Shown here one piece after another: positions 1,018 through 31,661 of a stretch of DNA of 40,000 nucleotides. Under the pieces are notes generated by a model that saw nothing but the letters and a program-made list of their open reading frames with translations, was not told the origin of the DNA and did no database searches. The DNA is from Pseudoalteromonas sp. AOP31-A2-14 (GTDB lineage Bacteria > Pseudomonadota > Gammaproteobacteria > Enterobacterales > Alteromonadaceae). Location of the stretch: NCBI GenBank assembly GCA_052378035.1, contig JBQSXI010000001.1. The stretch is one strand, 5' to 3'. Every line of letters starts with the position of its first letter. The first letter of the stretch is position 1. The translations under genes and the position numbers were made by a program.

Positions 1018-1791
1018 GTGGGTATAGAGCGTGTTTTTTATCATACAAAGACACACCAACAAGGTTCATCTGCATTAATTGTTATTTATACACATGGATT
1101 GACTACATTCATGATGCAGAAAATAGCAAAAAAAACAGATCAACCCGCCACTGTTTTTTTAAATAAAGCCGATATATCCAAACCAAAATGTGCAATTAGG
1201 TGGTTTAATCCAAATAAAGAAATTCTTCGCTGCGGTCACGGTACATTAGCGGCGGCCTATTTTTTAAAAAAATACCAAGGGTATTGTCCGGCTGTATTTA
1301 GAAGGGGTAAAGGGATTGTAAGTAATGAAGAGTTTAAGATAATAAGTCAAAATGGCGCATTACAACTTCAACTAGCACCTATCATCAGTAACACTATTAA
1401 CAATATTGAGATATTATCAAAAGCAGTTCCGGTAACTTTAAAGAGGCTTTATCAAACAACTGGCCATGAGGGTTATACAACGGCGTTAATTGATAGTGAA
1501 GTATCCCTAAAAAATTTAAAGGTTAACGTGGAACAGCTGAAGCTCCACCCTTTCGCTTTAATTATTTTACAAAAAACGAAAAACAAACGACATCAGACGC
1601 AATGGAGGTTTAGGTATTTTGCACCTTATTTTGGCGTCAACGAAGATAATGCAACAGGTTCAGCACTGAGTATAATAGCACCTATCATAAAATCACTAAG
1701 CGCCCAAACTCACGCCGTACTAATACAGGAGTCACCGAGCGGTGCTGTTATTAATTATCAATTAAAAAATAATGTCATCAATATCAGTTAA
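1018..1791 (+). CDS. PhzF-family isomerase-like protein (YddE/PhzF superfamily), divergent
   Basis: Motif IRWFNPNKEILRCGHGTLAAAYFL resembles the PhzF family xRxFxPxxExxxCGHaTla core. The listed ORF start (880) overlaps asnB, so I prefer the in-frame GTG at 1018 just after the asnB stop. The start is uncertain. Confidence 0.5.
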   Translation: MGIERVFYHTKTHQQGSSALIVIYTHGLTTFMMQKIAKKTDQPATVFLNKADISKPKCAIRWFNPNKEILRCGHGTLAAAYFLKKYQGYCPAVFRRGKGIVSNEEFKIISQNGALQLQLAPIISNTINNIEILSKAVPVTLKRLYQTTGHEGYTTALIDSEVSLKNLKVNVEQLKLHPFALIILQKTKNKRHQTQWRFRYFAPYFGVNEDNATGSALSIIAPIIKSLSAQTHAVLIQESPSGAVINYQLKNNVINIS

Positions 1792-1868
1792 CCTAGCACT
1801 TTTTATATAGCTATAAAGTACTCCTTTTAATAGCAAATGTGTCAATTTAAAGCTCAACATTATTTAAT

Positions 1869-2270
1869 TTAAACGTATTGAGAGGTTTCTTGGTTTAAAA
1901 GTTCACTTAATACATCAGGTTCAATTTCATCAAATACCCATTGTTGGTTTGGAAACACTGCTATATTAATACTTTCGTTTTTAAAAAGTGGTAACCAGTA
2001 ATCTATAAATTCATGTAACGATAGTTCACATACAGCGTAGTTCTCAATGCTATTTGTGAAAACGTCTGCATAATCGGGATGCGGCCACACAGGAACCGAT
2101 TTCATGCCTTCAGCATTTATACAAAAAAAGAAACCGTCATCATTTTTCACACCCCAGAGTTGTTCCCAATCTGCGACTCGCTCAATAAAATGGCGACTGC
2201 GTTTTTCAGCACTTAAAGATAACACTGCACTGAATTGATGCTCATTCATTTTATATGGCATAAAAACCAA
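1869..2270 (-). CDS. DUF2750-like small cytoplasmic protein
   Basis: 133 aa. The pattern SAEKRSRHFIERVADWEQLWGV...VPVWPHPDYA resembles my recollection of the DUF2750 family. No database search was possible. Confidence 0.55.
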   Translation of the reverse strand: MVFMPYKMNEHQFSAVLSLSAEKRSRHFIERVADWEQLWGVKNDDGFFFCINAEGMKSVPVWPHPDYADVFTNSIENYAVCELSLHEFIDYWLPLFKNESINIAVFPNQQWVFDEIEPDVLSELLNQETSQYV

Positions 2271-2308
2271 ACGCTCACTATATAAATTAATACAACAAAT
2301 TGTAAATT

Positions 2309-2716
2309 TTATTCTATTACTGTTGGATGAAAAAAGGTTTCTGCTTCAGAAATCAAATGCTCTAATTGTCCAGACTCTATAATAAGTGAAACTTGGGTAC
2401 TCCAAAAAGGCTCCCACGTCCCTGTACATAGTTTTGCTGTTAAAGTTATATGGCCTGTTTTGTCAGAAGTTGCGAAAAGCTGAAACTCCCCTTCGAGGGC
2501 ACTCCAGGATTTTTCACCTTCCCAGCCATTTCTATTTTGAAATAACTGATTGAAAAAATCTATCGGACTTTCACCGTATACATGATTAGTAACACGAATA
2601 TTAGCACTTAATTCGTTCCCGATTAAGGATACACAATAAAAATCAACCCAGCCTTGGGAATTAACTTCTGGTGAATGTAATTCTATTGATATATTTTCTG
2701 TTGAGGTTATTTTCAT
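2309..2716 (-). CDS. Hypothetical protein (135 aa, no recognised domain)
   Basis: Clean ORF 38 bp upstream of the DUF2750-like gene on the same strand, in an AT-rich setting. Confidence 0.45.
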   Translation of the reverse strand: MKITSTENISIELHSPEVNSQGWVDFYCVSLIGNELSANIRVTNHVYGESPIDFFNQLFQNRNGWEGEKSWSALEGEFQLFATSDKTGHITLTAKLCTGTWEPFWSTQVSLIIESGQLEHLISEAETFFHPTVIE

Positions 2717-2767
2717 TTGTATTGCTATAGTTTCCTATTGTAATTAGTAATTTAACTTACAATCTAA

Positions 2768-3247
2768 TTAGGTTAATTCAGCAGGACCAACTTTTTCGCT
2801 CATTAAAGCTATAAAATCGTCATGCTCTGTTACAGCTCGTTTAGGTATTATATGAAAAAACTGATTGCTAATATAAATTAAGTAAAGATCTGGAGTATTA
2901 GCCCATTTATGAATCTCTTCCCATGTAAACTTACTGATTGTTTGGGAGTTCTTATGGGTAACATACTCAGGAGTTAATTCAACTTCAGTATAACTTGCTA
3001 TCGCCTTATTTTGCGTAAAATGCTTTTTACTAATATAAGGCATGAGCCAAAGCTGGGCACCTAAGAAGCCTAAAAAGCCAAATACCAACGGTGTGAAAAA
3101 CAATAAATACATGCCTGTTAGTAAACCCGCAACGAAAAAAATGCTTCCCATAGTTAGATAGATAGGTAGTAAAATTTTATTGTTTTTAACGCTTATTTTG
3201 ACCGCTTGGTGAAACTCGGATTCTTTTAATGTATATTCAATTTTCAA
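2768..3247 (-). CDS. YcxB-like membrane protein (two TM helices plus a C-terminal YcxB-type domain)
   Basis: The hydrophobic pair LLPIYLTMGSIFFVAGLLTGMYLLFFTPLVFGFLGFLGAQLWL is followed by WEEIHKWANTPDLYLIYISNQFFHIIPKRA, typical of the YcxB family. Confidence 0.5.
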   Translation of the reverse strand: MKIEYTLKESEFHQAVKISVKNNKILLPIYLTMGSIFFVAGLLTGMYLLFFTPLVFGFLGFLGAQLWLMPYISKKHFTQNKAIASYTEVELTPEYVTHKNSQTISKFTWEEIHKWANTPDLYLIYISNQFFHIIPKRAVTEHDDFIALMSEKVGPAELT

Positions 3248-3567
3248 ACTTTAACCCTTTTTATGATTTATTTAATGTGCAAGTTTTATGAACCAAATGG
3301 TTTAGTGAGTTATTGATAAACACTTCTAACATTAATTTACCGAACGTACGCCCCATAGGTTTGACTATTTCATACAGGCTTTTGTTAATTATATAAATTT
3401 CCAACTTAGTCTAAACTGAATAGCTTACTGTTTACATAACCTTGGTAATCATACATGCTGTTCTTATAAAGCGCTGTCATTCATGTTTCATATTATATTG
3501 TGCCCTAATGGCTGTTTATGTTTGATAACACAGCAATCGTAAACTAAACCGTAAAGAGGCTTAATCA

Positions 3568-3972
3568 TTGAGTAAAGTACAACAAAGAATCGACTCTGCA
3601 ATTGCTAATTATTCTGTCGCTTTGATGAATAATACTAAATGGAAGCATGTTTTCAAAAAGCTAACAGAGTTTCAAATGATATTTCAAATAGCTTTTGTAC
3701 GTGAGCATAAGTACGGATCATTACAAAAGATTCATACGTTAGATGTTATTGATGACCACTTAGCAGATGGGTGTGTATGCGGGGGACCTACGTACTTTAA
3801 GGAAATATATGCAGTGAAAATAATACGCTTTAACAAAAGCCAAAATGCTGCAACGGGAAGGTACGAGAATACAACAACATCAAGCAATGCATTTTTAGAT
3901 AGCCTGCAAGCATTTGGTAGGTTCCCGATAGAAATAACCGAGGAAAATATTTATATACACGGGTATCAATAA
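3568..3972 (+). CDS. Hypothetical protein (134 aa, TTG start)
   Basis: ORF only, with a non-ATG start and no recognisable motif. Confidence 0.3.
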   Translation: MSKVQQRIDSAIANYSVALMNNTKWKHVFKKLTEFQMIFQIAFVREHKYGSLQKIHTLDVIDDHLADGCVCGGPTYFKEIYAVKIIRFNKSQNAATGRYENTTTSSNAFLDSLQAFGRFPIEITEENIYIHGYQ

Positions 3973-20634: not shown

Positions 20635-20724
20635 TAAGCTTCAATGGCAACTATGAGCTGTGAGTTCAGACGGGCGATAAACTCGCTTTCGGTGTTTGTC
20701 AAACTAGTTGTCGCGATCACTACG

Positions 20725-21774
20725 TTATGCACTCTCAGCCTTGACACTATTTTGTTCAGGGTTTAAGTACACTTCTTTTGGTAAATCCCAATTACGGATA
20801 TTACCGCTCCAGCGCTCAGGGTGAGCATCTTTAGCACCTTGATAAACTTCTTTTCTATTAGCCAATATGTCACCCGCTAATCCTGAATGCCTTTGATGTG
20901 GGCTGACGTATTTGATGCCACTATGTTTGTGGTTAAAATTATACCAGTGGCTAAATTTCAACACCCAACTACGCGCCTCATCAATTGTTGAAAACCCTTT
21001 ATACGGATAGTCAGGCCGATATTTACACGTTTTAAATATCGACTCAGCATAAGCATTATCATTGCTCACCCTAGGACGATTAAAAGACGACACGACACCT
21101 AAACTATAAAGTGTTTCAAGCATTGATGAGCCTTTCATTGGGCTTCCATTATCCGAATGCAGTACCAGAGGATTATCTTTAACTCCTTCTTTTAAATGAG
21201 CTTTCTTAATTAATATTGATGCATTTTCTGCTGATTCGTCATCATGAATTTCCCATCCAACAATCTTTCGACTAAATATATCGAGTATCAAATATAAATA
21301 AAAATGCAGCCCTTTAGCGGGGCCTGGTAACCAAGTAATATCCCAACACCACACTTGGTTTGGCCCTGTAGCACAGTGTGTCGTCGGTACTTTTCTCTCT
21401 TTTATCTGACTACGTCCGCGAGCGTTTTGCTGTTTTTCTTCATGAAGAACACGATAATATGTTGATTCAGAAGCAAGATAAATACCCTCATCTGCTAATG
21501 TAGGGACGATTTGGCTTGGTGGTAAGCTCTTAAAATCATCGCTATTAACGATGGCTAATATGTTATCTCTCTCTGCTTTTGATAGCTTATTTTTTGGCTC
21601 AGGGCGCTGAGATATTGGTCTACCATCTGTTTTTATGTTCCCGTCAACAGTCCAACGTTGATACGTCCGGACACTGATCCCAAGTTCACGGCAAGCTTTA
21701 AACTTTGGCGCACCAGAACTCACAGCTTCATTAACTAGTTTAACTGCTTGAATGCGAGCTGAGTCGAGGATCAT
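20725..21774 (-). CDS. IS3-family transposase OrfB (DDE integrase core)
   Basis: WCWDITWLP..., HSDNGSPMKG and SNDNAYAESIFKTCKY are rve-type DDE motifs. Confidence 0.85.
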   Translation of the reverse strand: MILDSARIQAVKLVNEAVSSGAPKFKACRELGISVRTYQRWTVDGNIKTDGRPISQRPEPKNKLSKAERDNILAIVNSDDFKSLPPSQIVPTLADEGIYLASESTYYRVLHEEKQQNARGRSQIKERKVPTTHCATGPNQVWCWDITWLPGPAKGLHFYLYLILDIFSRKIVGWEIHDDESAENASILIKKAHLKEGVKDNPLVLHSDNGSPMKGSSMLETLYSLGVVSSFNRPRVSNDNAYAESIFKTCKYRPDYPYKGFSTIDEARSWVLKFSHWYNFNHKHSGIKYVSPHQRHSGLAGDILANRKEVYQGAKDAHPERWSGNIRNWDLPKEVYLNPEQNSVKAESA

Positions 21775-22268
21775 TCGTCCTCGGCTTCCCCCCAGATCGC
21801 ATTTGCTTTTTTTCTTAACACCAATAGTGCTGCGGTTTCAGCGAGTGCCTTATCTTTTCGACGTAGCTCCTTTTCTAATTGATTGATCTGTTTTTTATCT
21901 TTCTTTGTTTCGGTGGAGAAGGCTTTTTCTTGCTCTTTAACGTTAGCGTTTGCATCTATACACGCATTTCGCCAAGCCGATACTTGTTCCACATAAAGAC
22001 CTTTGCCTCGGCAATATTCCGCTAACTCAGCTTGATTTAAAGAGGCTGTTTCCAACACGACTGAGAATTTATTTGCTGATGACCACTGCTCAGCATTCTT
22101 TCCATCACCTGGCACTAAATGCCCCTTATCAATTGCTTGTTTTCGCCAATTATACAAGGTTGATTCACCAATCCCCATCTCGATTGATAATTGGGCTATT
22201 GCTATATTATTTGGAGGCATCATCTTCTGAAGAGCCGACTCTTTGCTTTGCGCTGAATAATGTTTCAT
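21771..22268 (-). CDS. IS3-family transposase OrfA (HTH / leucine zipper)
   Basis: 165 aa; the HTH is IAQLSIEMGIGESTLYNWRK, with a coiled-coil C-terminus. Its stop overlaps the orfB ATG (ATGA), and orfB is in the -1 frame. Confidence 0.85.
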   Translation of the reverse strand: MKHYSAQSKESALQKMMPPNNIAIAQLSIEMGIGESTLYNWRKQAIDKGHLVPGDGKNAEQWSSANKFSVVLETASLNQAELAEYCRGKGLYVEQVSAWRNACIDANANVKEQEKAFSTETKKDKKQINQLEKELRRKDKALAETAALLVLRKKANAIWGEAEDE

Positions 22269-22315
22269 TGTTACTCCACGCCCTCTGTTTAATGGTTGAA
22301 TATTAAGCGCGACAA

Positions 22316-22780
22316 CTAGTCTGACAGAGAGGGATATTTCCGAATCACTGCTATTTTTCCATCTTCGATTTCCAAAACTTCCATCGTTGAGTAGTGTAAT
22401 TCAATGAGTTTATTTGTTTGAGGGTGAATTCCCTTACTAGATGTGGTGTATGTAATGGTAATCACATTGTGAGCGGGAATAACTTGGTTCAAAGTAGCTT
22501 CATGTTCAGAATGAGATCCTAAATAAAACAACATCCCTTCGCGAATACTTTCTTTGCCGTCAGGTAACCGGGAGTCATCCGAATCGTAGGGCAAGTGTTG
22601 GTGGGCGACATCAGGTTTAAGGAAAGACAGGTAGTGCTCTAAGTCTTTTTCAGTAGCATCAGGTGCCTGTGTTGCTGCCCATGCTAAAAAATACTTTTTT
22701 CCGAATACGGATAAATCTGTGTCTGCTATCGCGTTAAATGACGAGACTAAGGTAAAAAAAGTAAGCATCCATCTATTCAT
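22316..22780 (-). CDS. Cassette 8: secreted NTF2/SnoaL-like protein; its 3' end runs into the IS3 inverted repeat
   Basis: GGAGG RBS before the ATG at 22780 and signal peptide MNRWMLTFFTLVSSFNAIA. The last 4 codons and the stop (S-L-S-D-stop) are encoded in full or in part by the IS3 terminus, so the native C-terminus and this cassette's attC are missing. Confidence 0.6.
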   Translation of the reverse strand: MNRWMLTFFTLVSSFNAIADTDLSVFGKKYFLAWAATQAPDATEKDLEHYLSFLKPDVAHQHLPYDSDDSRLPDGKESIREGMLFYLGSHSEHEATLNQVIPAHNVITITYTTSSKGIHPQTNKLIELHYSTMEVLEIEDGKIAVIRKYPSLSD

Positions 22781-22804
22781 AAAAACCTCCACTGTTTAGA
22801 TTAG

Positions 22805-22889
22805 GTATAACGCCAGCAATAAACGGCGCCCTGACAAGGGCGTCCGGTGGAGGCCGAAGGCCGGAACGAATTTAATTGCCTTGTTAAAT
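22805..22889 (-). other. attC site (85 nt) of cassette 7
   Basis: Plus strand reads GTATAAC-GCC...(GC-rich imperfect palindrome GGCGCCCTGACAAGGGCGTCC / GGCCGAAGGCC)...CCTT-GTTAAAT. Confidence 0.75.
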
Positions 22890-22891
22890 CG

Positions 22892-23203
22892 TCACTTCCC
22901 ACGGCAATGGTTCTCGTAGAAATCTAACAGAAAATCGTCAGTTTCTTGGTTAGCTGCGGACCAATCATAACCAAACCAATTGTCCCAACCAGATTCGATA
23001 ATCAACTTACCCCGATGAAAACGTGGATGGACGGCCTCATCTGTTACCGGAGGGACATACGGCCCCCAGCGGTAAAAGCCATAGCGCAGCATGAGTAACA
23101 GACTGACTTTCCATGAACGCCAAAATGAGAAGGTCGAAATGGTTACCCTCCCACTGGCGTTATCTCTGACTTCGAATCCCTTACTCATAGTCTGTCGTGA
23201 CAT
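22892..23203 (-). CDS. Cassette 7: hypothetical protein (103 aa)
   Basis: ORF fills the cassette. Its first ATG lies inside the R' core (GTTAAATG), and no SD is visible. No recognised domain. Confidence 0.45.
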   Translation of the reverse strand: MSRQTMSKGFEVRDNASGRVTISTFSFWRSWKVSLLLMLRYGFYRWGPYVPPVTDEAVHPRFHRGKLIIESGWDNWFGYDWSAANQETDDFLLDFYENHCRGK

Positions 23204-23268
23204 TTAACGCCGAAGCTCAGTTGCCGCTGTAGAGCGAAGCGGAACAGCGGTCAATTGCAGCGACTTGT
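23202..23268 (-). other. attC of cassette 6, R' side (67 nt); the remaining 5 nt (TAGCT) are at 25238-25242, after intron copy 1
   Basis: Plus strand reads ATTTAAC-GCCGAAGCTCAGTTGCCGCTG...CAGCGGTCAATTGCAGCGACTTGT | intron | TAGCT. Joining the exons restores ACTT-GTTAGCT, which matches the GTTRRRY ends of the other sites. Confidence 0.75.
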
Positions 23269-25237
23269 GTACGCCCGACATGGGCATTGACTTATGAGGT
23301 GAAAGTCCTCTGTAGGAAGATCACCGTTTAAATAACACACTGTTATTAAACGATAACTACTAGCGAATGGCAAGGGCTAAATCGCGAGAGATAGTCTAGA
23401 GGAAGCCGCTAGCAAATCTGTGAGCTGATGAACAAAAACATCATATGAGGCGTAGGCTGGAGACGAGCTAGCACAAGATAGCGAAGTCATGTGATCTAAC
23501 GGCCACCGTAAATGATGCAGTTGTGCAGAGAAAGTCGATGCACCTTATTCGGGGAGATCTGATAAACACGCATCCGCGCTAACGCTTGGAGATTACCAGT
23601 TAGGGACTGGTTGTTCAACCCTTGGCGCTTTGGTTGCTGCGACCTACAGCGAGCGAAATAGCAGTAAACAAGCATTAGTTTCGACGCGCTTTATCGAGTA
23701 ATCGCTAGAGTGATTTATCAGAAGTCAGCAGACGGCATAGTAGCCAAACGCCCATCGTAATGGAGGGGACACGGTGAAGGCCTGAACATCTTAACCAGAG
23801 GAGATACTACAAATGAACTTGAATTCACATAGATCACCGTGTTGTGATAGTGATGAACAGCGTTCGACTGTGAATAATACCTCGAATGAATACAACAAAA
23901 CAGATCGTGACCTGATGGCAAGGGTACTGAGCAACCACAACATTGGTGCAGCATGGCAACATGTTAAGCGCAATAAAGGGGCTGCGGGTATTGATAATAT
24001 GAGTATTGAGGAATTTAATGACTTCGCTAAGTTACATTGGCTGGGTATTAAACAACAATTACTTAGCGGCACTTATCAACCCTTGCCAGTCAAACGCGTG
24101 ATGATACCCAAACCCGATGGCGGTGAGCGAATGCTTGGGATCCCTTCTGTTATTGACAGAGTAATCCAACAAGCTATTGCTCAAGTGATTAGCCCTTACT
24201 TTGAGCCTCTATTTTCACCACATAGTTATGGTTATCGCCCTCATAAAAGAGCCAGCCAAGCAGTAAATCATGTTCAATCTTGTGTTAAACAAGGTTATAA
24301 AACAGCAGTTGATATTGACTTGTCTAAGTTCTTTGATGAAGTAAACCATGACATGCTGATGAATCGTGTTGGTCGTAAAGTCAAAGACAAAGCACTCATG
24401 CGCCTACTTGGTAAATACCTCCGAGCGGGGATCGCAGAGCGCGAAACGGGTCTGTGGTTTGAGTCAACCAAAGGAGTCCCTCAAGGTGGGCCATTATCCC
24501 CTTTGCTTTCCAACATCTTACTCGATGAATTAGATAAGAAGCTAACCTACAAACACCTTAAGTTTGCACGTTACGCTGATGATATAATCATTTTAGTAAA
24601 AACGAAAAGCGAAGGACTCATAATCCAGCGGGAAATTACTGCGTTCATCACTCAGCGATTAAAACTCAAAGTGAATGAATCGAAAAGTCGAGTCGGTCCC
24701 GTATCAGGCTCGAAATTTCTCGGGTTTACCTTCCGTTACGCTCAAGTGCAGATCCACGAACAGGCGCTAAAGAAATTCAAAGCAAATGTAAGAGAACTCA
24801 CTAACCGCAACTGGGGGATCTCAATGACCCTACAAATTCATAAACTCACACAGTATTTGCGCGGCTGGGGGAACTACTACCTAATAGCCAACGCTTATCA
24901 GCTAACGGTGGATTTAGATCACTGGATCCGACGTAGGATAAGAATGTGCTACTGGCGGCAATGGCGTAAACCTCGCACCAAAGTACGCAGTTTAATGAAA
25001 TTGGGTGTTAGCGAACGACTCGCCATAGCCTGTGGTATCACCAGTAAAGGCCCTTGTAGAAGCTCAAAAACAAAAGGAATTAACATTGCGCTAGGTAATG
25101 ACTATTTAGCATCACAAGGTTTAGTGTCATTGAAAGATATTTGGATCAAAATTCATTACGGGAGATGAACCGCCCATTGCGGACCCGCATGATGGGTGGT
25201 GTGGGGGCTGGAGGTTAGAGACCTCCGGCTACCCGAT
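23269..25237 (+). mobile_element. Group II intron, bacterial class C (IIC-attC type), copy 1, 1969 nt
   Basis: 5' end is GTACGCCCGAC (GUGYG-like). Domain V is at 25170-25199 (CCGCCCAU UGCG-GACC-CGCA UG AUGGGUGG, with a CGC triad and a 2-nt 3' bulge). Domain VI is at 25203-25234 with bulged A25231 six nt from the 3' end (...CCCGAU). The RT/maturase ORF sits in domain IV. The intron lies in the attC bottom strand, antisense to the cassettes. Confidence 0.88.
23813..25168 (+). CDS. Group II intron-encoded protein: reverse transcriptase plus maturase (X) domain, no endonuclease domain
   Basis: RT motifs are RVMIPKPDGGERMLGIPSVIDRVIQQA, GVPQGGPLSPLLSNILL and FARYADDIIILV (YADD). The maturase motif is LTQYLRGWGNYY. 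It ends shortly after domain X, as in class C intron-encoded proteins. Confidence 0.92.
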   Translation: MNLNSHRSPCCDSDEQRSTVNNTSNEYNKTDRDLMARVLSNHNIGAAWQHVKRNKGAAGIDNMSIEEFNDFAKLHWLGIKQQLLSGTYQPLPVKRVMIPKPDGGERMLGIPSVIDRVIQQAIAQVISPYFEPLFSPHSYGYRPHKRASQAVNHVQSCVKQGYKTAVDIDLSKFFDEVNHDMLMNRVGRKVKDKALMRLLGKYLRAGIAERETGLWFESTKGVPQGGPLSPLLSNILLDELDKKLTYKHLKFARYADDIIILVKTKSEGLIIQREITAFITQRLKLKVNESKSRVGPVSGSKFLGFTFRYAQVQIHEQALKKFKANVRELTNRNWGISMTLQIHKLTQYLRGWGNYYLIANAYQLTVDLDHWIRRRIRMCYWRQWRKPRTKVRSLMKLGVSERLAIACGITSKGPCRSSKTKGINIALGNDYLASQGLVSLKDIWIKIHYGR

Positions 25238-25563
25238 TAGCTTTGTTTGCCAAGGTATTCTTTAGCGTACAGGCCAACTAAACTACGCCCAGGATTTTGA
25301 CCGTTAATCCATTCATCAACGGAGAATAGCTCAAACAATCCAACTTTAATCAAGGTCGGTACTGCGATCTTCAGCTGCTCTTCTACCTCGCCACGCTCAC
25401 CTGCGTTGTATAAAGCGACGTTGCGGAGCATCGTGGCAACCGTACCTGTTTGTACCTTACTTCCATCTTTAAGGGTGACTGCGGGAAGCTCTTCTCCTTC
25501 GGCCACGATCTTTTTATTGATCGAACCAAGTTGCTCGATATTTTCTGGTGAACCTTCGGACAT
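25237..25563 (-). CDS. Cassette 6: hypothetical acidic protein (108 aa), flanked on both sides by intron copies
   Basis: AAGGAG RBS before the ATG at 25563. The stop codon TAA (25237-25239) spans the intron/exon junction and is preserved in the intron-less configuration. No recognised domain. Confidence 0.55.
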   Translation of the reverse strand: MSEGSPENIEQLGSINKKIVAEGEELPAVTLKDGSKVQTGTVATMLRNVALYNAGERGEVEEQLKIAVPTLIKVGLFELFSVDEWINGQNPGRSLVGLYAKEYLGKQS

Positions 25564-25591
25564 CTCGATCTCCTTCAATAATTTTCGTAAT

Positions 25592-25719
25592 AGCTAACGC
25601 CCAGCTCAGCCGCAGTTTGTAAGTTGACGTTTTGTGGAAACCTTTTGCGTAGCAAAACCACAAAACGGCGACTTACAAACTGTCGAGCGCACGAAGTGCG
25701 CGTTGCTGGAGCGACTTGT
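25592..25719 (-). other. attC of cassette 5, R' side (128 nt); the remaining 5 nt (TAGCT) are at 27689-27693, after intron copy 2
   Basis: Plus strand reads AGCTAAC-GCCCAGCTCAGCCGCAGTTTGTAAG...long palindrome (GTTTTGTGGAAACC / CCACAAAAC; CTTACAAACTG)...GGAGCGACTTGT | intron | TAGCT. Confidence 0.72.
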
Positions 25720-27688
25720 GTACGCCCGACATGGGCATTGACTTATGAGGTGAAAGTCCTCTGTAGGAAGATCACCGTTTAAATAACACACTGTTATTAA
25801 ACGATAACTACTAGCGAATGGCAAGGGCTAAATCGCGAGAGATAGTCTAGAGGAAGCCGCTAGCAAATCTGTGAGCTGATGAACAAAAACATCATATGAG
25901 GCGTAGGCTGGAGACGAGCTAGCACAAGATAGCGAAGTCATGTGATCTAACGGCCACCGTAAATGATGCAGTTGTGCAGAGAAAGTCGATGCACCTTATT
26001 CGGGGAGATCTGATAAACACGCATCCGCGCTAACGCTTGGAGATTACCAGTTAGGGACTGGTTGTTCAACCCTTGGCGCTTTGGTTGCTGCGACCTACAG
26101 CGAGCGAAATAGCAGTAAACAAGCATTAGTTTCGACGCGCTTTATCGAGTAATCGCTAGAGTGATTTATCAGAAGTCAGCAGACGGCATAGTAGCCAAAC
26201 GCCCATCGTAATGGAGGGGACACGGTGAAGGCCTGAACATCTTAACCAGAGGAGATACTACAAATGAACTTGAATTCACATAGATCACCGTGTTGTGATA
26301 GTGATGAACAGCGTTCGACTGTGAATAATACCTCGAATGAATACAACAAAACAGATCGTGACCTGATGGCAAGGGTACTGAGCAACCACAACATTGGTGC
26401 AGCATGGCAACATGTTAAGCGCAATAAAGGGGCTGCGGGTATTGATAATATGAGTATTGAGGAATTTAATGACTTCGCTAAGTTACATTGGCTGGGTATT
26501 AAACAACAATTACTTAGCGGCACTTATCAACCCTTGCCAGTCAAACGCGTGATGATACCCAAACCCGATGGCGGTGAGCGAATGCTTGGGATCCCTTCTG
26601 TTATTGACAGAGTAATCCAACAAGCTATTGCTCAAGTGATTAGCCCTTACTTTGAGCCTCTATTTTCACCACATAGTTATGGTTATCGCCCTCATAAAAG
26701 AGCCAGCCAAGCAGTAAATCATGTTCAATCTTGTGTTAAACAAGGTTATAAAACAGCAGTTGATATTGACTTGTCTAAGTTCTTTGATGAAGTAAACCAT
26801 GACATGCTGATGAATCGTGTTGGTCGTAAAGTCAAAGACAAAGCACTCATGCGCCTACTTGGTAAATACCTCCGAGCGGGGATCGCAGAGCGCGAAACGG
26901 GTCTGTGGTTTGAGTCAACCAAAGGAGTCCCTCAAGGTGGGCCATTATCCCCTTTGCTTTCCAACATCTTACTCGATGAATTAGATAAGAAGCTAACCTA
27001 CAAACACCTTAAGTTTGCACGTTACGCTGATGATATAATCATTTTAGTAAAAACGAAAAGCGAAGGACTCATAATCCAGCGGGAAATTACTGCGTTCATC
27101 ACTCAGCGATTAAAACTCAAAGTGAATGAATCGAAAAGTCGAGTCGGTCCCGTATCAGGCTCGAAATTTCTCGGGTTTACCTTCCGTTACGCTCAAGTGC
27201 AGATCCACGAACAGGCGCTAAAGAAATTCAAAGCAAATGTAAGAGAACTCACTAACCGCAACTGGGGGATCTCAATGACCCTACAAATTCATAAACTCAC
27301 ACAGTATTTGCGCGGCTGGGGGAACTACTACCTAATAGCCAACGCTTATCAGCTAACGGTGGATTTAGATCACTGGATCCGACGTAGGATAAGAATGTGC
27401 TACTGGCGGCAATGGCGTAAACCTCGCACCAAAGTACGCAGTTTAATGAAATTGGGTGTTAGCGAACGACTCGCCATAGCCTGTGGTATCACCAGTAAAG
27501 GCCCTTGTAGAAGCTCAAAAACAAAAGGAATTAACATTGCGCTAGGTAATGACTATTTAGCATCACAAGGTTTAGTGTCATTGAAAGATATTTGGATCAA
27601 AATTCATTACGGGAGATGAACCGCCCATTGCGGACCCGCATGATGGGTGGTGTGGGGGCTGGAGGTTAGAGACCTCCGGCTACCCGAT
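25720..27688 (+). mobile_element. Group II intron, class C (IIC-attC type), copy 2, identical to copy 1
   Basis: Offset is exactly 2451 nt from copy 1. Every stretch I compared by eye is identical, and the 451-aa intron-encoded proteins and all internal six-frame ORFs are identical. It has the same TTGT|T insertion point. Confidence 0.88.
26264..27619 (+). CDS. Group II intron-encoded RT/maturase (copy 2)
   Basis: Translation is 100% identical to 23813-25168. Confidence 0.92.
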   Translation: MNLNSHRSPCCDSDEQRSTVNNTSNEYNKTDRDLMARVLSNHNIGAAWQHVKRNKGAAGIDNMSIEEFNDFAKLHWLGIKQQLLSGTYQPLPVKRVMIPKPDGGERMLGIPSVIDRVIQQAIAQVISPYFEPLFSPHSYGYRPHKRASQAVNHVQSCVKQGYKTAVDIDLSKFFDEVNHDMLMNRVGRKVKDKALMRLLGKYLRAGIAERETGLWFESTKGVPQGGPLSPLLSNILLDELDKKLTYKHLKFARYADDIIILVKTKSEGLIIQREITAFITQRLKLKVNESKSRVGPVSGSKFLGFTFRYAQVQIHEQALKKFKANVRELTNRNWGISMTLQIHKLTQYLRGWGNYYLIANAYQLTVDLDHWIRRRIRMCYWRQWRKPRTKVRSLMKLGVSERLAIACGITSKGPCRSSKTKGINIALGNDYLASQGLVSLKDIWIKIHYGR

Positions 27689-27692
27689 TAGC

Positions 27693-28109
27693 TTATGATT
27701 TTGCGGCACCAATAGTTTTACAAAAGCTTTCAATAACAGCTTTTTCAGGTGATGAAACGCCACCAGAAATAGAATAACTAATTGATATTTTTGAATTTGA
27801 ACCGGATTCTTCTACGACCACATTAAGGGGTGCAGTTTTACCGTTACCGTATGAAACGTCTTGGCCTGCGGAAATAATACCAAGATCTTTGTCAGAACTT
27901 GAAATTTTCCAGCCGCCTTTTGCTATTTGTTGGTATATTTTTTTGTAGGCTTCTGCGGTTGAAACCCCTTCAACTTCAGCCCATGTTTTAAAGGTTTTTC
28001 CTTTAAAAAAGCTGCCTTCTTTTGTGAAGTTAGTTTCGCATTGCTCCGCTGCCAAAGTATTAAAACTAACGCAGAAAGAAAGTAACAGAATTGCTTTAGA
28101 TTTTTTCAT
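27693..28109 (-). CDS. Cassette 5: secreted protein of unknown function (138 aa)
   Basis: GAGGGA RBS and signal peptide MKKSKAILLLSFCVSFNTLAAEQ. The mature part is Gly/Ser-rich and likely beta-rich. Confidence 0.6.
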   Translation of the reverse strand: MKKSKAILLLSFCVSFNTLAAEQCETNFTKEGSFFKGKTFKTWAEVEGVSTAEAYKKIYQQIAKGGWKISSSDKDLGIISAGQDVSYGNGKTAPLNVVVEESGSNSKISISYSISGGVSSPEKAVIESFCKTIGAAKS

Positions 28110-28163
28110 AATTCCCTCAATTGGTTATACCCTAAAAATTGTTGATAGCTTCGGGCATGGAAA

Positions 28164-28235
28164 AGCTAACGCCTGAATTCAGCCGCCGGCCGCTGGCGCA
28201 GCCAGTGGACGGTCGGCTGGAATGAATTGTTAGCC
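28164..28235 (-). other. attC site (72 nt) of cassette 4
   Basis: AGCTAAC-GCCTGAATTCAGCCGCCGGCCGCTGGCGCAGCCAGTGGACGGTCGGCTGGAATGAATT-GTTAGCC. The arms CAGCCG.../...CGGCTG pair with extrahelical bases. Confidence 0.8.
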
Positions 28236-28236
28236 A

Positions 28237-28667: not shown

Positions 28668-28716
28668 GGCTAACGCCCGCCATCATGCGCTTGTCGCATG
28701 CATGGCATTGTTATGT
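28668..28716 (-). other. attC site (49 nt, unusually short) of cassette 3
   Basis: GGCTAAC-GCCCGCCATCATGCG-CTTGT-CGCATGCATGGCATT-GTTATGT. The arms GCCATCATGCG / CGCATGCATGGC pair with one extrahelical C. Confidence 0.7.
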
Positions 28717-29066: not shown

Positions 29067-29127
29067 ACATAACGCTAAGCTAAGCCGAGCGCGCTTTTTG
29101 CGCGTCGGCTTGAGCTTTTTGTTAGAG
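29067..29127 (-). other. attC site (61 nt) of cassette 2
   Basis: ACATAAC-GCTAAGCTAAGCCGAGCGCGC-TTTTT-GCGCGTCGGCTTGAGCTTTTT-GTTAGAG, with the palindrome AAGCCGAGCGCGC / GCGCGTCGGCTT. Confidence 0.8.
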
Positions 29128-29845: not shown

Positions 29846-29946
29846 CTCTAACGCCGTTGTAACCGGCAAAAAATTGTTGGCTAAAATTTTGTGAAGTACG
29901 AGCAAAGCCAACAAATTTTTTGTCCGCGTTGACGACTTTGTTATGT
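29846..29946 (-). other. attC site (101 nt) of cassette 1
   Basis: CTCTAAC-GCCGTTGTAACCGGCAAAAAATTGTTGGCT...AGCCAACAAATTTTTTGTCCGCGTTGACGACTTT-GTTATGT. The stop codon of cassette 1 lies inside the GTTA of R''. Confidence 0.78.
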
Positions 29947-30462: not shown

Positions 30463-30628
30463 TCACATAACAATTTTATAGTGCGCTCATTGCGCATATA
30501 TCTGCCAATGTCACGCTCATGTATTCAATAATTCTTTTTAACAAATAACTTAACACATTGCTACATATAATTTTTTATTAGTACTCAAACTCTCAATAAA
30601 AGACAAAATGCGCTCGCCGCTCATTTTC
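30463..30628 (-). other. attI region, with the attI x cassette-1 junction at 30465-30471; the cassette promoter Pc should lie here or in the intI 5' end (not resolved)
   Basis: The minus strand reads GTTATGT at 30471-30465, immediately upstream of cassette 1. This is the same core as the R' ends of two attC sites. The AT-rich 220-bp spacer runs to the divergent intI. Confidence 0.55.
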
Positions 30629-30656
30629 TTGAATATGTGTGCATCACAACTATACT
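30629..30656 (+). promoter_or_regulatory. Candidate sigma70 promoter of intI (PintI)
   Basis: TTGAAT (30629-30634), a 16-nt spacer, then TATACT (30651-30656), about 35 nt upstream of the intI ATG. Confidence 0.5.
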
Positions 30657-30670
30657 GTATATAAAAACAG
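30655..30670. promoter_or_regulatory. LexA (SOS) box overlapping the intI -10 region
   Basis: CTGTATATAAAAACAG is a perfect CTGT-N8-ACAG palindrome with an AT-rich centre. The E. coli consensus is TACTGTATATATATACAGTA. Confidence 0.8.
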
Positions 30671-30689
30671 CACTATTATTGGTAATAGT

Positions 30690-31661
30690 ATGAAAACACG
30701 TTCCCCATTTTTAAATTACATAGCTGAATATATGCTAGTTCGTCAATATTCATTGCGCACCGTAGATACGTACCTAAGATGGATTGCATCTTATATCCAT
30801 TTTCATAATAAACGTCATCCCGCCTCAATGGGGGACAATGAAGTCGAACGCTACTTAGAACATTTAGTGTTAAAGCAAAACGTTGCACCACGTACGCAAG
30901 CTACCGCACTCAATTCATTGTCATTTTTATACAAGCACATAATAAAAAAAGAACTCTCATTAAATTTAAATTTTGCTCGTAGTAAAAAACAAGCAAAGCT
31001 CCCTGTAGTGATGACCCCAGAGGAAGTTAAAATGTTGATGGCTCATTTAAATAAGCGCTATTATTTAATTGCAGCCCTTATGTATGGAAGTGGCTTAAGA
31101 GTAATGGAAGCGGTGCAATTAAGGGTGAAAGATATTGATTTTGATTACAAGTGTATTCAAGTATGGAATGGCAAAGGTAATAAACACCGTATTGTAACGC
31201 TGGCCACCGAGCTAATTCCTATGCTGAGAAATCAAATTCTGCAGGTTGATGACTATCTAAAACTTGATTTAAATAATACGGAATATGCTGGCGTATGGAT
31301 GCCTTATGCTTTAACAAAAAAATATCCTTCTGCCTCAAAATCACTTGCGTGGCAGTATTTATTTCCCTCACATATATTAAGTACAGATCCTCAAAGTGGT
31401 GAAATAAGACGACATCATTTTCATCACTCGTGTATAAGAAAAGAAGTAAAAAAAGCCGTTCAAAAATCGGGATTAACAAAAATAATAACACCGCATACCT
31501 TGCGTCATTCATTTGCAACGCATCTATTGCAAAGTGGCGCCGATATTCGCACCGTTCAAGCACAATTGGGCCATTCTGATGTCAAAACCACACAAATATA
31601 TACGCATGTTTTACAACAAGGAGCAAACGGTGTTGTAAGCCCATTAAGCAAAATTTTCTAG
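30690..31661 (+). CDS. intI: Integron integrase IntI (tyrosine recombinase)
   Basis: N-terminal FLNYIAEYMLVRQYSLRTVDTYLRWI and box I GSGLRVMEAVQLRVKDID. The IntI-specific extra segment is WMPYALTKKYPSASKSLAWQYLFPS. Box II is HTLRHSFATHLLQSGADIRTVQAQLGHSDVKTTQIYTHV, containing the catalytic Tyr. I prefer the start at MKTRSPF (323 aa) over the upstream GTG. Confidence 0.92.
   Translation: MKTRSPFLNYIAEYMLVRQYSLRTVDTYLRWIASYIHFHNKRHPASMGDNEVERYLEHLVLKQNVAPRTQATALNSLSFLYKHIIKKELSLNLNFARSKKQAKLPVVMTPEEVKMLMAHLNKRYYLIAALMYGSGLRVMEAVQLRVKDIDFDYKCIQVWNGKGNKHRIVTLATELIPMLRNQILQVDDYLKLDLNNTEYAGVWMPYALTKKYPSASKSLAWQYLFPSHILSTDPQSGEIRRHHFHHSCIRKEVKKAVQKSGLTKIITPHTLRHSFATHLLQSGADIRTVQAQLGHSDVKTTQIYTHVLQQGANGVVSPLSKIF

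Follow-up and report, generated by a model that had tools for sequence, protein, structure and literature searches.

How did one retroelement come to sit, twice and unchanged, in consecutive attC sites of a chromosomal integron? The question is raised by a 40,000-nt stretch of the genome of Pseudoalteromonas sp. AOP31-A2-14 (GenBank assembly GCA_052378035.1, contig JBQSXI010000001.1), hereafter the window, in whose numbering all coordinates of this locus are given. A reading made from the letters alone (the sequence-only reading) had described two identical group II introns at 23269-25237 and 25720-27688. Our analysis indicates, with a probability of roughly 0.92, that a small chromosomal Pseudoalteromonas integron harbours two copies of one bacterial intron of group IIC-attC, complete in its parts and closely similar to S.ma.I2. 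It is another instance of a well-described kind of intron and not a new kind of system. The family, its target, its orientation, and its outward promoters were known already, having been described since 2002-2010; the host genus is new, and the twin identical copies, the matched empty sites, and the link of the clinical intron to Pseudoalteromonas add useful detail.

Both copies are 1,969 nt long and lie on the plus strand, copy 1 (23269-25237) within attC of cassette 6, which encodes a DUF7709 protein, and copy 2 (25720-27688) within attC of cassette 5, which encodes a 138-aa hypothetical protein. Their alignment showed 0 mismatches across 1,969 nt (100% identity), as had been claimed. Outside the element, the copies share just the 10 nt that precede it (AGCGACTTGT) and the 6 nt that follow it (TAGCTT). 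Because the flanks diverge at these points, the repeat unit is the element itself and the copies represent two separate insertions; a segmental duplication of the array was ruled out on the same grounds. The copies are direct repeats with 482 nt between them and a repeat-to-repeat distance of 2.45 kb, and no third copy or fragment of the intron was found within the 40-kb window. The 5' end of both is GTACGCCC, carrying the GUACG that the sequence-only reading had noted, and the 3' end is GAU, at 25237 in copy 1. Both were inserted at the same point, between TTGT and TAGCT in the R'' core of the attC bottom strand, and both lie opposite to the cassette open reading frames (ORFs), on the same strand as the integrase gene intI. 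The consecutive positions, the shared insertion point, and the antisense orientation were thus all as first described.

One rival explanation is a single intron duplicated by the assembler. Two-kilobase repeats are often mis-assembled, and many relatives of the intron are found on contigs about 1.97 kb in length whose ends coincide with those of the intron. Against such an artefact, the two copies have four distinct intron-exon junctions, with a 482-bp unique cassette between a 3' end and a 5' end, an arrangement that one chromosomal copy would not produce. Both copies stand in one 3.41-Mb contig and their proteins carry two separate accessions (MGP9671178.1 and MGP9671180.1). Moreover, independent assemblies repeat the junction of cassette 5 with the intron 3' end (loci L087, L088, L090, and L091), and one repeats both junctions of cassette 6 (L099). 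We regard an assembly artefact as very improbable.

The ribozyme was recognized in each copy by covariance models of Rfam. RF02001 (group-II-D1D4-3) and RF01998 (group-II-D1D4-1) matched at full length on the plus strand, with 130 and 65 bits, respectively. RF00029 (domains V-VI) gave a full-length match at 25168-25237 in a 141-nt search, with 40.5 bits as compared with a gathering score of 40, and this match ended exactly on the proposed 3' end of the intron. Matches at or above the gathering score were therefore obtained for the models that span domains I-VI. The segment 25166-25237 folded with a minimum free energy of −43.5 kcal/mol (z = −5.75). In this fold, domain V occupies 25169-25200 (copy 2: 27620-27651) and contains the CGC catalytic triad and a 2-nt UG bulge; the triad and the bulge agreed with the sequence-only reading, and the ends it had given, 25170-25199, were each off by a single nucleotide. 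Domain VI occupies 25202-25235 (copy 2: 27653-27686) and has a single bulged branch-point A at 25231 (copy 2: 27682), seven nucleotides before the intron end. The fold and the RF00029 alignment placed this A and the terminal GAU exactly where they had been predicted. When the domain V-VI structure was laid over 27 aligned relatives, 94.9% of the cells were paired, compared with about 44% when the partners were slid, and compensatory changes were present at eight pairs (three in domain V and five in domain VI). The 3' end CUACCCGAU was kept in at least 50 relatives. One relative, from a metagenome-assembled genome of an uncultured Alteromonadaceae (L026), has two extra blocks of about 50 nt in domain I that are absent from the others, one after the GGAGG motif and the other within the region beside exon-binding site 1 (EBS1).

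The intron-encoded protein was assigned next to the class C enzymes. Its ORF lies at 23813-25168 on the plus strand in copy 1 and at 26264-27619 on the plus strand in copy 2; the two products are identical, with 451 aa comprising a reverse transcriptase, a maturase (X), and a short C-terminal region. A Pfam scan of the protein found RVT_1 (residues 98-307) and GIIM (residues 319-396) and nothing else, hence no endonuclease domain, and the NCBIfam model TIGR04416 (group II reverse transcriptase/maturase) scored 393 bits against a cut-off of 300. These results confirmed the described architecture. The YADD motif is located at residues 254-257 and a GGAGA ribosome-binding site precedes the start; the ORF and every catalytic motif are intact in both copies. 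The exact protein sequence is assigned to Pseudoalteromonas sp. AOP31-A2-14. Among solved structures, the best matches were the GsI-IIC reverse transcriptase (6AR1, 415 bits) and the Eubacterium rectale IIC reverse transcriptase (7UIM, 365 bits), followed by the reverse transcriptases 5HHJ (261) and 5HHL (257), the IIA protein LtrA (136), and TeI4h (105); this ranking expresses similarity to solved structures and not a phylogeny with the Zimmerly reference set. It stands together with four further traits of class C, namely the CGC triad, the lack of an endonuclease domain, an EBS1 of 4-5 nt, and an attC hairpin upstream of the insertion point. On these sequence features the intron belongs to class C, in agreement with the earlier assignment.

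Target recognition was examined by comparing exon junctions. We fetched about 80 loci encoding relatives of the protein, from the 431 stretches of the genome collection that encode one, and mapped the intron ends. Every mapped 5' junction begins with GTACGCC, nearly always as GTACGCCC, and nearly all 3' ends read ...TACCCGAT. The last four bases of the 5' exon are TTGT at 44 of 46 junctions, and position −5 is C or T at 42 of 46. The 3' exon starts with T at all 56 junctions and with TA at 50 of them. In domain I, the hairpin loop GCACAAGA (23471-23478) presents ACAAG (23473-23477 on the plus strand; copy 2: 25924-25928), which is complementary to a 5' exon ending in (C/U)UUGU and to the CUUGU found here. 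The loop reads ACAAG where the 5' exons of relatives end in (Y)TTGT, and it reads CCAAGCA, that is CAAG, in the two loci whose 5' exon ends in CTTG (L022 and L023). Because the loop and the exon covary, we identified the loop as EBS1.

The two occupied sites can be reassembled by joining the exons. On the bottom strand, attC of cassette 6 consists of 23202-23268 and 25238-25242 (TAGCT), with the R' complement ATTTAAC at one end and ACTTGT before the intron, and a hairpin forms when its exons are joined. For cassette 5, the site consists of 25592-25719 and 27689-27693 (TAGCT) and runs from AGCTAAC to ACTTGT; joined, its 133 nt fold with −45.8 kcal/mol (z −9.2). Five further sites on the same strand are unoccupied: attC of cassette 7 (22805-22889), which ends in CCTTGTTAAAT, and four others at 28164-28235, 28668-28716, 29067-29127, and 29846-29946, all with the RYYYAAC/GTTRRRY frame and bottom-strand hairpins. 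The joined exons had been said to resemble these five sites; this holds for the TTGTTA core, which all of them carry, but not for the flanks, which differ among them (CCTTGTTAAAT, AATTGTTAGCC, CATTGTTATGT, TTTTGTTAGAG, and CTTTGTTATGT). Five Watson-Crick pairs with EBS1 are offered by CTTGT, which is present at both occupied sites and at attC7. The sites attC1 and attC2 read TTTGT, with a wobble at −5, and attC3 and attC4 read ATTGT, with a mismatch. The occupancy of the array, a small sample, fits the idea that the intron prefers sites with which it pairs better. Insertion into the attC bottom strand at TTGT/T within R'', antisense to the cassettes, is the hallmark of IIC-attC introns (PMC7923331, PMC3001079), and both copies show it, in accordance with the lineage first proposed.

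We then placed the element among known introns. For S.ma.I2 (AF453998), a Klebsiella plasmid copy served as a stand-in, on the basis of a figure legend in PMC7845606 and of the matching published coordinates. In that example the intron lies in the aadA2 attC of a dfrA12-gcuF-aadA2 array, and the legend names the intron of the class 1 integron drawn with these cassettes as S.ma.I2. The element is 96.6% identical to this S.ma.I2-type intron over its whole length, and the protein is 96% identical (17 of 451 residues differ). The length differs slightly, being 1,970 nt in S.ma.I2 and in E.c.I7 and the Klebsiella intron, which are nearly identical to it, and 1,969 nt here. Shared are the GUACG 5' end, the GAU 3' end, the bottom-strand attC insertion point between TTGT and TA, the antisense orientation, and the promoters P1out, P2out, and inward at equal intron coordinates. 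The setting is different: S.ma.I2 belongs to a mobile class 1 resistance integron (Serratia marcescens SCH909), whereas the present copies lie in a marine chromosomal integron with cassettes of unknown function. Apart from the divergence of about 3.4%, it is the presence of two identical copies in adjacent cassettes that distinguishes the window. The similarity to S.ma.I2 is greater than the sequence-only reading had supposed, and the lineage proved not to be rare: 372 plasmid records match the intron DNA in addition to the 431 genome stretches, and 162 plasmid records, mostly of Klebsiella, carry the intron at 95-99% identity.

The nearest chromosomal relatives (94-97%) are all in Pseudoalteromonas species. 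In a neighbour-joining tree of the DNA, the Klebsiella copy fell inside the Pseudoalteromonas group, with the joint clade, which contains the introns of the window and of the S.ma.I2 type, recovered in 200 of 200 bootstrap replicates. The Klebsiella copy paired with that of P. ostreae in 192 of 200 replicates, and a Pseudoalteromonas-only clade was never formed. Since the clinical S.ma.I2-type intron nests within the Pseudoalteromonas copies, the data point to a marine chromosomal origin for an element that now travels with resistance cassettes. Downstream of the related introns at seven loci (L004, L005, L010, L011, L014, L046, and L074) an integron integrase gene lies on the same strand, as in the window.

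Other IIC-attC introns (Sh.ba.I2, the introns of Shewanella arrays, Kl.pn.I3, N.e.I1, and G.s.I1) share the target motif, the orientation, the protein architecture, and the position of P1out. They differ in sequence, with proteins 55-62% identical and DNA about 63-80% identical where the full element aligns (63% in L052), and some have extra insertions in domain I. Several introns per array are on record, as the 5' exon of a Shewanella putrefaciens intron is listed as a "second group II intron" (PMC3001079, Table 3), and several intron ends per locus were found in L006, L014, L018, L041, and L061. The class C introns that target terminators (B.h.I1, O.i.I1, GsI-IIC, and that of E. rectale) have the same CGC triad, small ribozyme, and endonuclease-less protein, recognize a DNA hairpin plus an intron-binding site 1 (IBS1) of 4-5 nt, and lack long pairing of the EBS2 type; the short IBS1, the hairpin, and the lack of such pairing are described as class C features in PMC4424553. 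They insert just after intrinsic terminators, sense to the upstream gene, whereas the window intron lies inside the R'' of attC in antisense. The IS1111-attC elements ISPa21 and ISPst6 are likewise directed to attC sites, on their 5' side, and lie in antisense to the cassettes (PMC3001079), but they are DNA transposons with a transposase rather than ribozyme retroelements, and no outward promoter has been demonstrated in them.

Some loci of the survey deserve separate mention. Introns that are 63% identical occupy the same aadA2 attC position in Huaxiibacter chinensis (L052, 570-2516) and in a Klebsiella plasmid (L001, 3208-5177), and the 70-nt 5' exon sequence is identical in the two. In a 2,293-nt contig of Shewanella sp. 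Isolate7 (L044), an intron 5' end, GUACGCCC, follows immediately upon an intron 3' end, CUACCCGAU, in head-to-tail fashion, at 131/132 and again at 2093/2094; the cause could be a repeat contig that was circularised, introns in true tandem, or a circular form of the intron. Many drafts of Pseudoalteromonas, Shewanella, Morganella, and Parashewanella include contigs, some 1.95-1.98 kb long, that begin and end a few bases from the intron boundaries (L002, L027, L029, L047, L054, L058, and others). As boundary-to-boundary contigs mark a collapsed multi-copy repeat, copy numbers are under-reported in such drafts.

The promoters of S.ma.I2 were searched for in the two copies. On the minus strand, the promoter-like P1out (TTGCCA-17-TTTAAT) lies at 23345-23373 (intron positions 77-105; copy 2: 25796-25824), directed toward cassette 7 from copy 1 and toward cassette 6 from copy 2, and the likewise promoter-like P2out (TTGAAC-17-TAATCT) lies at 23590-23618 (intron positions 322-350; copy 2: 26041-26069). 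A promoter-like site on the plus strand, CCTACA-N16-TAAACA at 23643-23670 (intron positions 375-402; copy 2: 26094-26121), points inward, upstream of the protein ORF. In both copies the sequences and coordinates of all three equal those published for S.ma.I2. P1out is listed with this sequence and position for S.ma.I2 and E.c.I7 (PMC3001079, Table 3), P2out of S.ma.I2 is functional in Escherichia coli, and the inward promoter is reported as functional with data not shown (PMC3001079). The same study showed that S.ma.I2 impedes transcription from the cassette promoter Pc and that the following cassette is expressed from the outward promoters, the net result in that case being a reduction of 72%. 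By analogy, the two copies probably impede Pc-driven cassette RNA, from which they could not be spliced out because the insertions are antisense. Transcripts of cassette 6 probably start in copy 2, and those of cassettes 7-8 in copy 1. The sequence-only reading had described the introns as polar barriers of about 2 kb for cassettes 6-8. An obstruction of Pc is what S.ma.I2 does show, but this is just half of the published picture: with P1out and P2out conserved at the same coordinates in both copies, cassettes 6-8 are likely transcribed from the introns rather than all silenced.

The sequence-only reading had proposed a search for empty sites by PCR of related strains; carried out in silico on other assemblies, this search yielded intron-less alleles of both sites. 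For attC5, the Logan assembly of SRR25395012 (L089) has cassette 5 followed by an attC free of intron and by the first part of cassette 6, with 99.6% identity to the joined window exons over 805 nt spanning the junction. The occupied allele is present in L087, L088, L090, and L091. Cassettes with 99.6-99.9% identity thus differ in whether attC5 contains the intron, and the insertion is therefore young when measured against cassette divergence. For attC6, at least eight loci (L092-L095, L097, L098, L100, and L101) carry an identical DUF7709 gene with an uninterrupted attC. They equal the joined exons up to the crossover point between G and TT and differ from one another beyond it, which identifies cassette 6 as a mobile cassette. 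In both cases the intron-less alleles match the predicted joined exons. The same attC6 is occupied in two other ways. L099 holds a 98.6% intron variant there, with 0 differences in 425 nt of exon and 28 in the 1,969 nt of intron, and the occupant in L096 is a far more distant intron, with 76-87% identity over those stretches that align. Invasion of attC6 must therefore have happened more than once.

The composition of related arrays varies as well. In L099 (GCA_014861425.1, RRYZ01000036.1), the DUF7709 cassette with its S.ma.I2-like intron, at 1280-3760, is the first cassette, directly following a match to the attI of the window integron (…GCGCACTATAAAATTG and then TTAGC), that is, at the integration site. 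L087 (ENA ERZ18545343, 3,211 nt) begins inside the 5' end of another intron, contains window cassettes 2 and 3 at 100% identity with a different cassette in place of cassette 4, and then carries cassette 5 and the intron. As cassette order and intron positions vary between near-identical arrays, the integron is not static. A decayed intron remnant was noted downstream of the empty DUF7709 cassette in L094, L095, and L097 (5331-5459): a 42-aa ORF with GIIM only, showing about 82% DNA similarity to the 3' part of the intron.

Another rival explanation is that the integrase captured cassettes already bearing introns, with no retrohoming inside the array. Both occupied cassettes do occur elsewhere with other neighbours, cassette 6 with an intron first after attI in L099 and cassette 5 with an intron behind a different cassette in L087. 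Units acquired independently should differ, however, as the L099 intron does with its 28 differences, and here there are 0 in 1,969. The L099 exons with 0 differences in 425 nt next to an intron that diverges by 1.4% indicate separate insertions into one cassette type. In addition, an intron between R'' and L'' puts 2 kb between the two parts of the attC hairpin; from the biology of attC sites, a split of this size is expected to impede recombination by the integrase. Capture of pre-loaded cassettes thus appears improbable.

The course of events that we favour can be set out as a series of steps, each of which is published behaviour of the family (PMC3001079, PMC7923331, PMC4424553) and is extended here to the strain; the sequence determinants for each are present. 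A plus-strand transcript spanning a copy would fold into domains I-VI, and the intron-encoded protein would bind the folded RNA and aid splicing. The RNA-protein particle would then recognize the folded attC bottom strand, a DNA hairpin, with EBS1 (ACAAG) pairing with the exon (C)TTGT and EBS3 with the next T (IBS3), and the intron would reverse splice into the R'' core between TTGT and TA. Copying into cDNA would be primed from the nascent strand at a replication fork, such priming being required because the protein has no endonuclease domain. One copy would have seeded the other, or both would have come from a common source, recently enough to leave 0 differences in 1,969 nt. That the element is currently active can reasonably be inferred, given that its copies are identical and that its sites are occupied in some arrays and empty in others; any direction of copying between the two would likewise be inferred.

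Several observations weigh against this explanation. The orientation is the first. GC skew is −0.03 and −0.10 in the chromosomal flanks, leaving the plus strand mildly C-rich, which suggests that the intron-sense strand is the leading-strand template, although a stretch of 40 kb whose genes are strand-biased does not suffice for a conclusion. Endonuclease-less introns do not usually favour this orientation. The support for domains V-VI is also narrow, as RF00029 clears its gathering score by 0.5 bit and is filtered out in larger searches, being unreported in the 40-kb scan and in a 2.1-kb scan at E<=1; since the 141-nt search gave the full-length match, we ascribe this silence to the filter and not to absence of the domains. 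Transcription is the third point. A generic sigma-70 scan found fewer promoter-like sites in the array than in shuffled sequence and no plus-strand promoter upstream of copy 1, but the rule used in the sigma-70/terminator scan excludes TTTAAT, so that it missed P1out and is uninformative on plus-strand transcription of the intron. In its clinical host S. marcescens, S.ma.I2 is reported to be untranscribed (PMC3001079), so an antisense copy in an array can be silent.

The last point concerns the identity itself, which gene conversion between direct repeats could alone maintain without any very recent insertion. The insertions would then be old, held identical by concerted evolution, and the element would now be immobile. 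The 482-nt distance between the direct repeats favours this, as do the silence of S.ma.I2 and the lack of an evident promoter before copy 1. Conversion leaves unexplained, however, why attC5 is occupied in some and empty in others of cassettes that are 99.6-99.9% identical, and immobility fits poorly with an ORF and catalytic motifs that are intact in both copies. Furthermore, conversion accounts for identity but not for origin, as both sites still had to be invaded. Old, converted insertions are therefore unlikely, and we favour recent retrohoming as the source of the twin copies.

The integron that hosts the copies is chromosomal, as had been stated. Its integrase gene intI (30639-31661 on the plus strand; 462 bits with TIGR02249, cut-off 265) is divergent from the cassettes and adjoins pyrF, lapB, and rpsA. 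The eight minus-strand cassettes extend from attI, near 30465, as far as 22316. Seven attC sites show the frame RYYYAAC ... GTTRRRY when read on the plus strand, their bottom strand, and have hairpin folds. Beyond the other end of the array lie an insertion sequence (IS) of the IS3 family and a DEAD-box helicase gene. A LexA-box-like palindrome, CTGTATATAAAAACAG (30655-30670), stands upstream of intI and overlaps a promoter-like TTGAAT-16-TATACT (30629-30656), which suggests that the integrase may be under SOS control. Because these sites occupy 30629-30670, the mechanically called GTG at 30639 is doubtful and the true start is probably the ATG at 30690.

The ORF of cassette 6 (25237-25563, minus strand; 108 aa from ATG) has one intron copy on either side. 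Its stop codon TAA straddles the insertion point and is preserved with or without the intron, and the exact DUF7709 protein was found in at least 23 contigs with varied array contexts. The ORF of cassette 5 (27693-28109, minus strand; 138 aa) matches no Pfam family. In its relatives in L082-L086 (about 86% DNA identity in comparison with window 27693-28236), in which upstream homology to cassette 5 begins at the GTTAGC core, a second gene of 119-123 aa begins 14 nt later; behind the two genes, L085 and L086 carry an attC that shares 94% identity with attC5. A two-gene cassette thus seems to have given rise to cassette 5 with its single gene. L082-L086 had been considered as empty attC5 alleles and were rejected, being the two-gene version at about 86% identity without the same ORF-attC junction. 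At its far end the array is closed by the IS3-family element (20697-22326, minus strand), which interrupts the last cassette ORF (22316-22792, SnoaL-like); no attC follows this last cassette in the window. The element has two ORFs (transpos_IS3 of NCBIfam at 188 bits, and HTH_Tnp_1 in the upstream ORF) and terminal inverted repeats at 20697-20715 and 22308-22326 (TGTCAAACTAGTTGTCGCG and CGCGACAACTAGTCTGACA).

The scarcity of such introns in integrons was called "perplexing" in PMC3001079, and antisense insertion was suggested to limit their spread. The present locus argues for ongoing mobility, because the element has been copied to the next attC in a natural host and is polymorphic between near-identical arrays. 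Two attC sites are now available in both empty and occupied form, one of them with three different occupants, and constitute a natural target set. An idea that goes beyond the literature follows from the shared orientation of the introns: transcription from the inward promoter of the upstream copy 1 may continue through cassette 6 and yield a complete precursor of copy 2 that includes the attC hairpin and IBS1. Homologous recombination between the copies would bring ORFs and attC sites into new combinations, here by fusing the ORF of cassette 5 to attC6. As summarized in PMC7923331 and PMC3001079, the cassette-formation model of Leon and Roy needs identical intron copies flanking a cassette. 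A joint reading can be offered tentatively, although we hold it to be more doubtful than not: the chromosomal integrons of Pseudoalteromonas may be a natural reservoir and multiplication ground of S.ma.I2, the tandem arrangement may keep the element mobile, and its copies may serve as the substrate of the Leon-Roy model. If true, a source would have been found for an intron carried by more than 160 clinical Enterobacterales plasmids.

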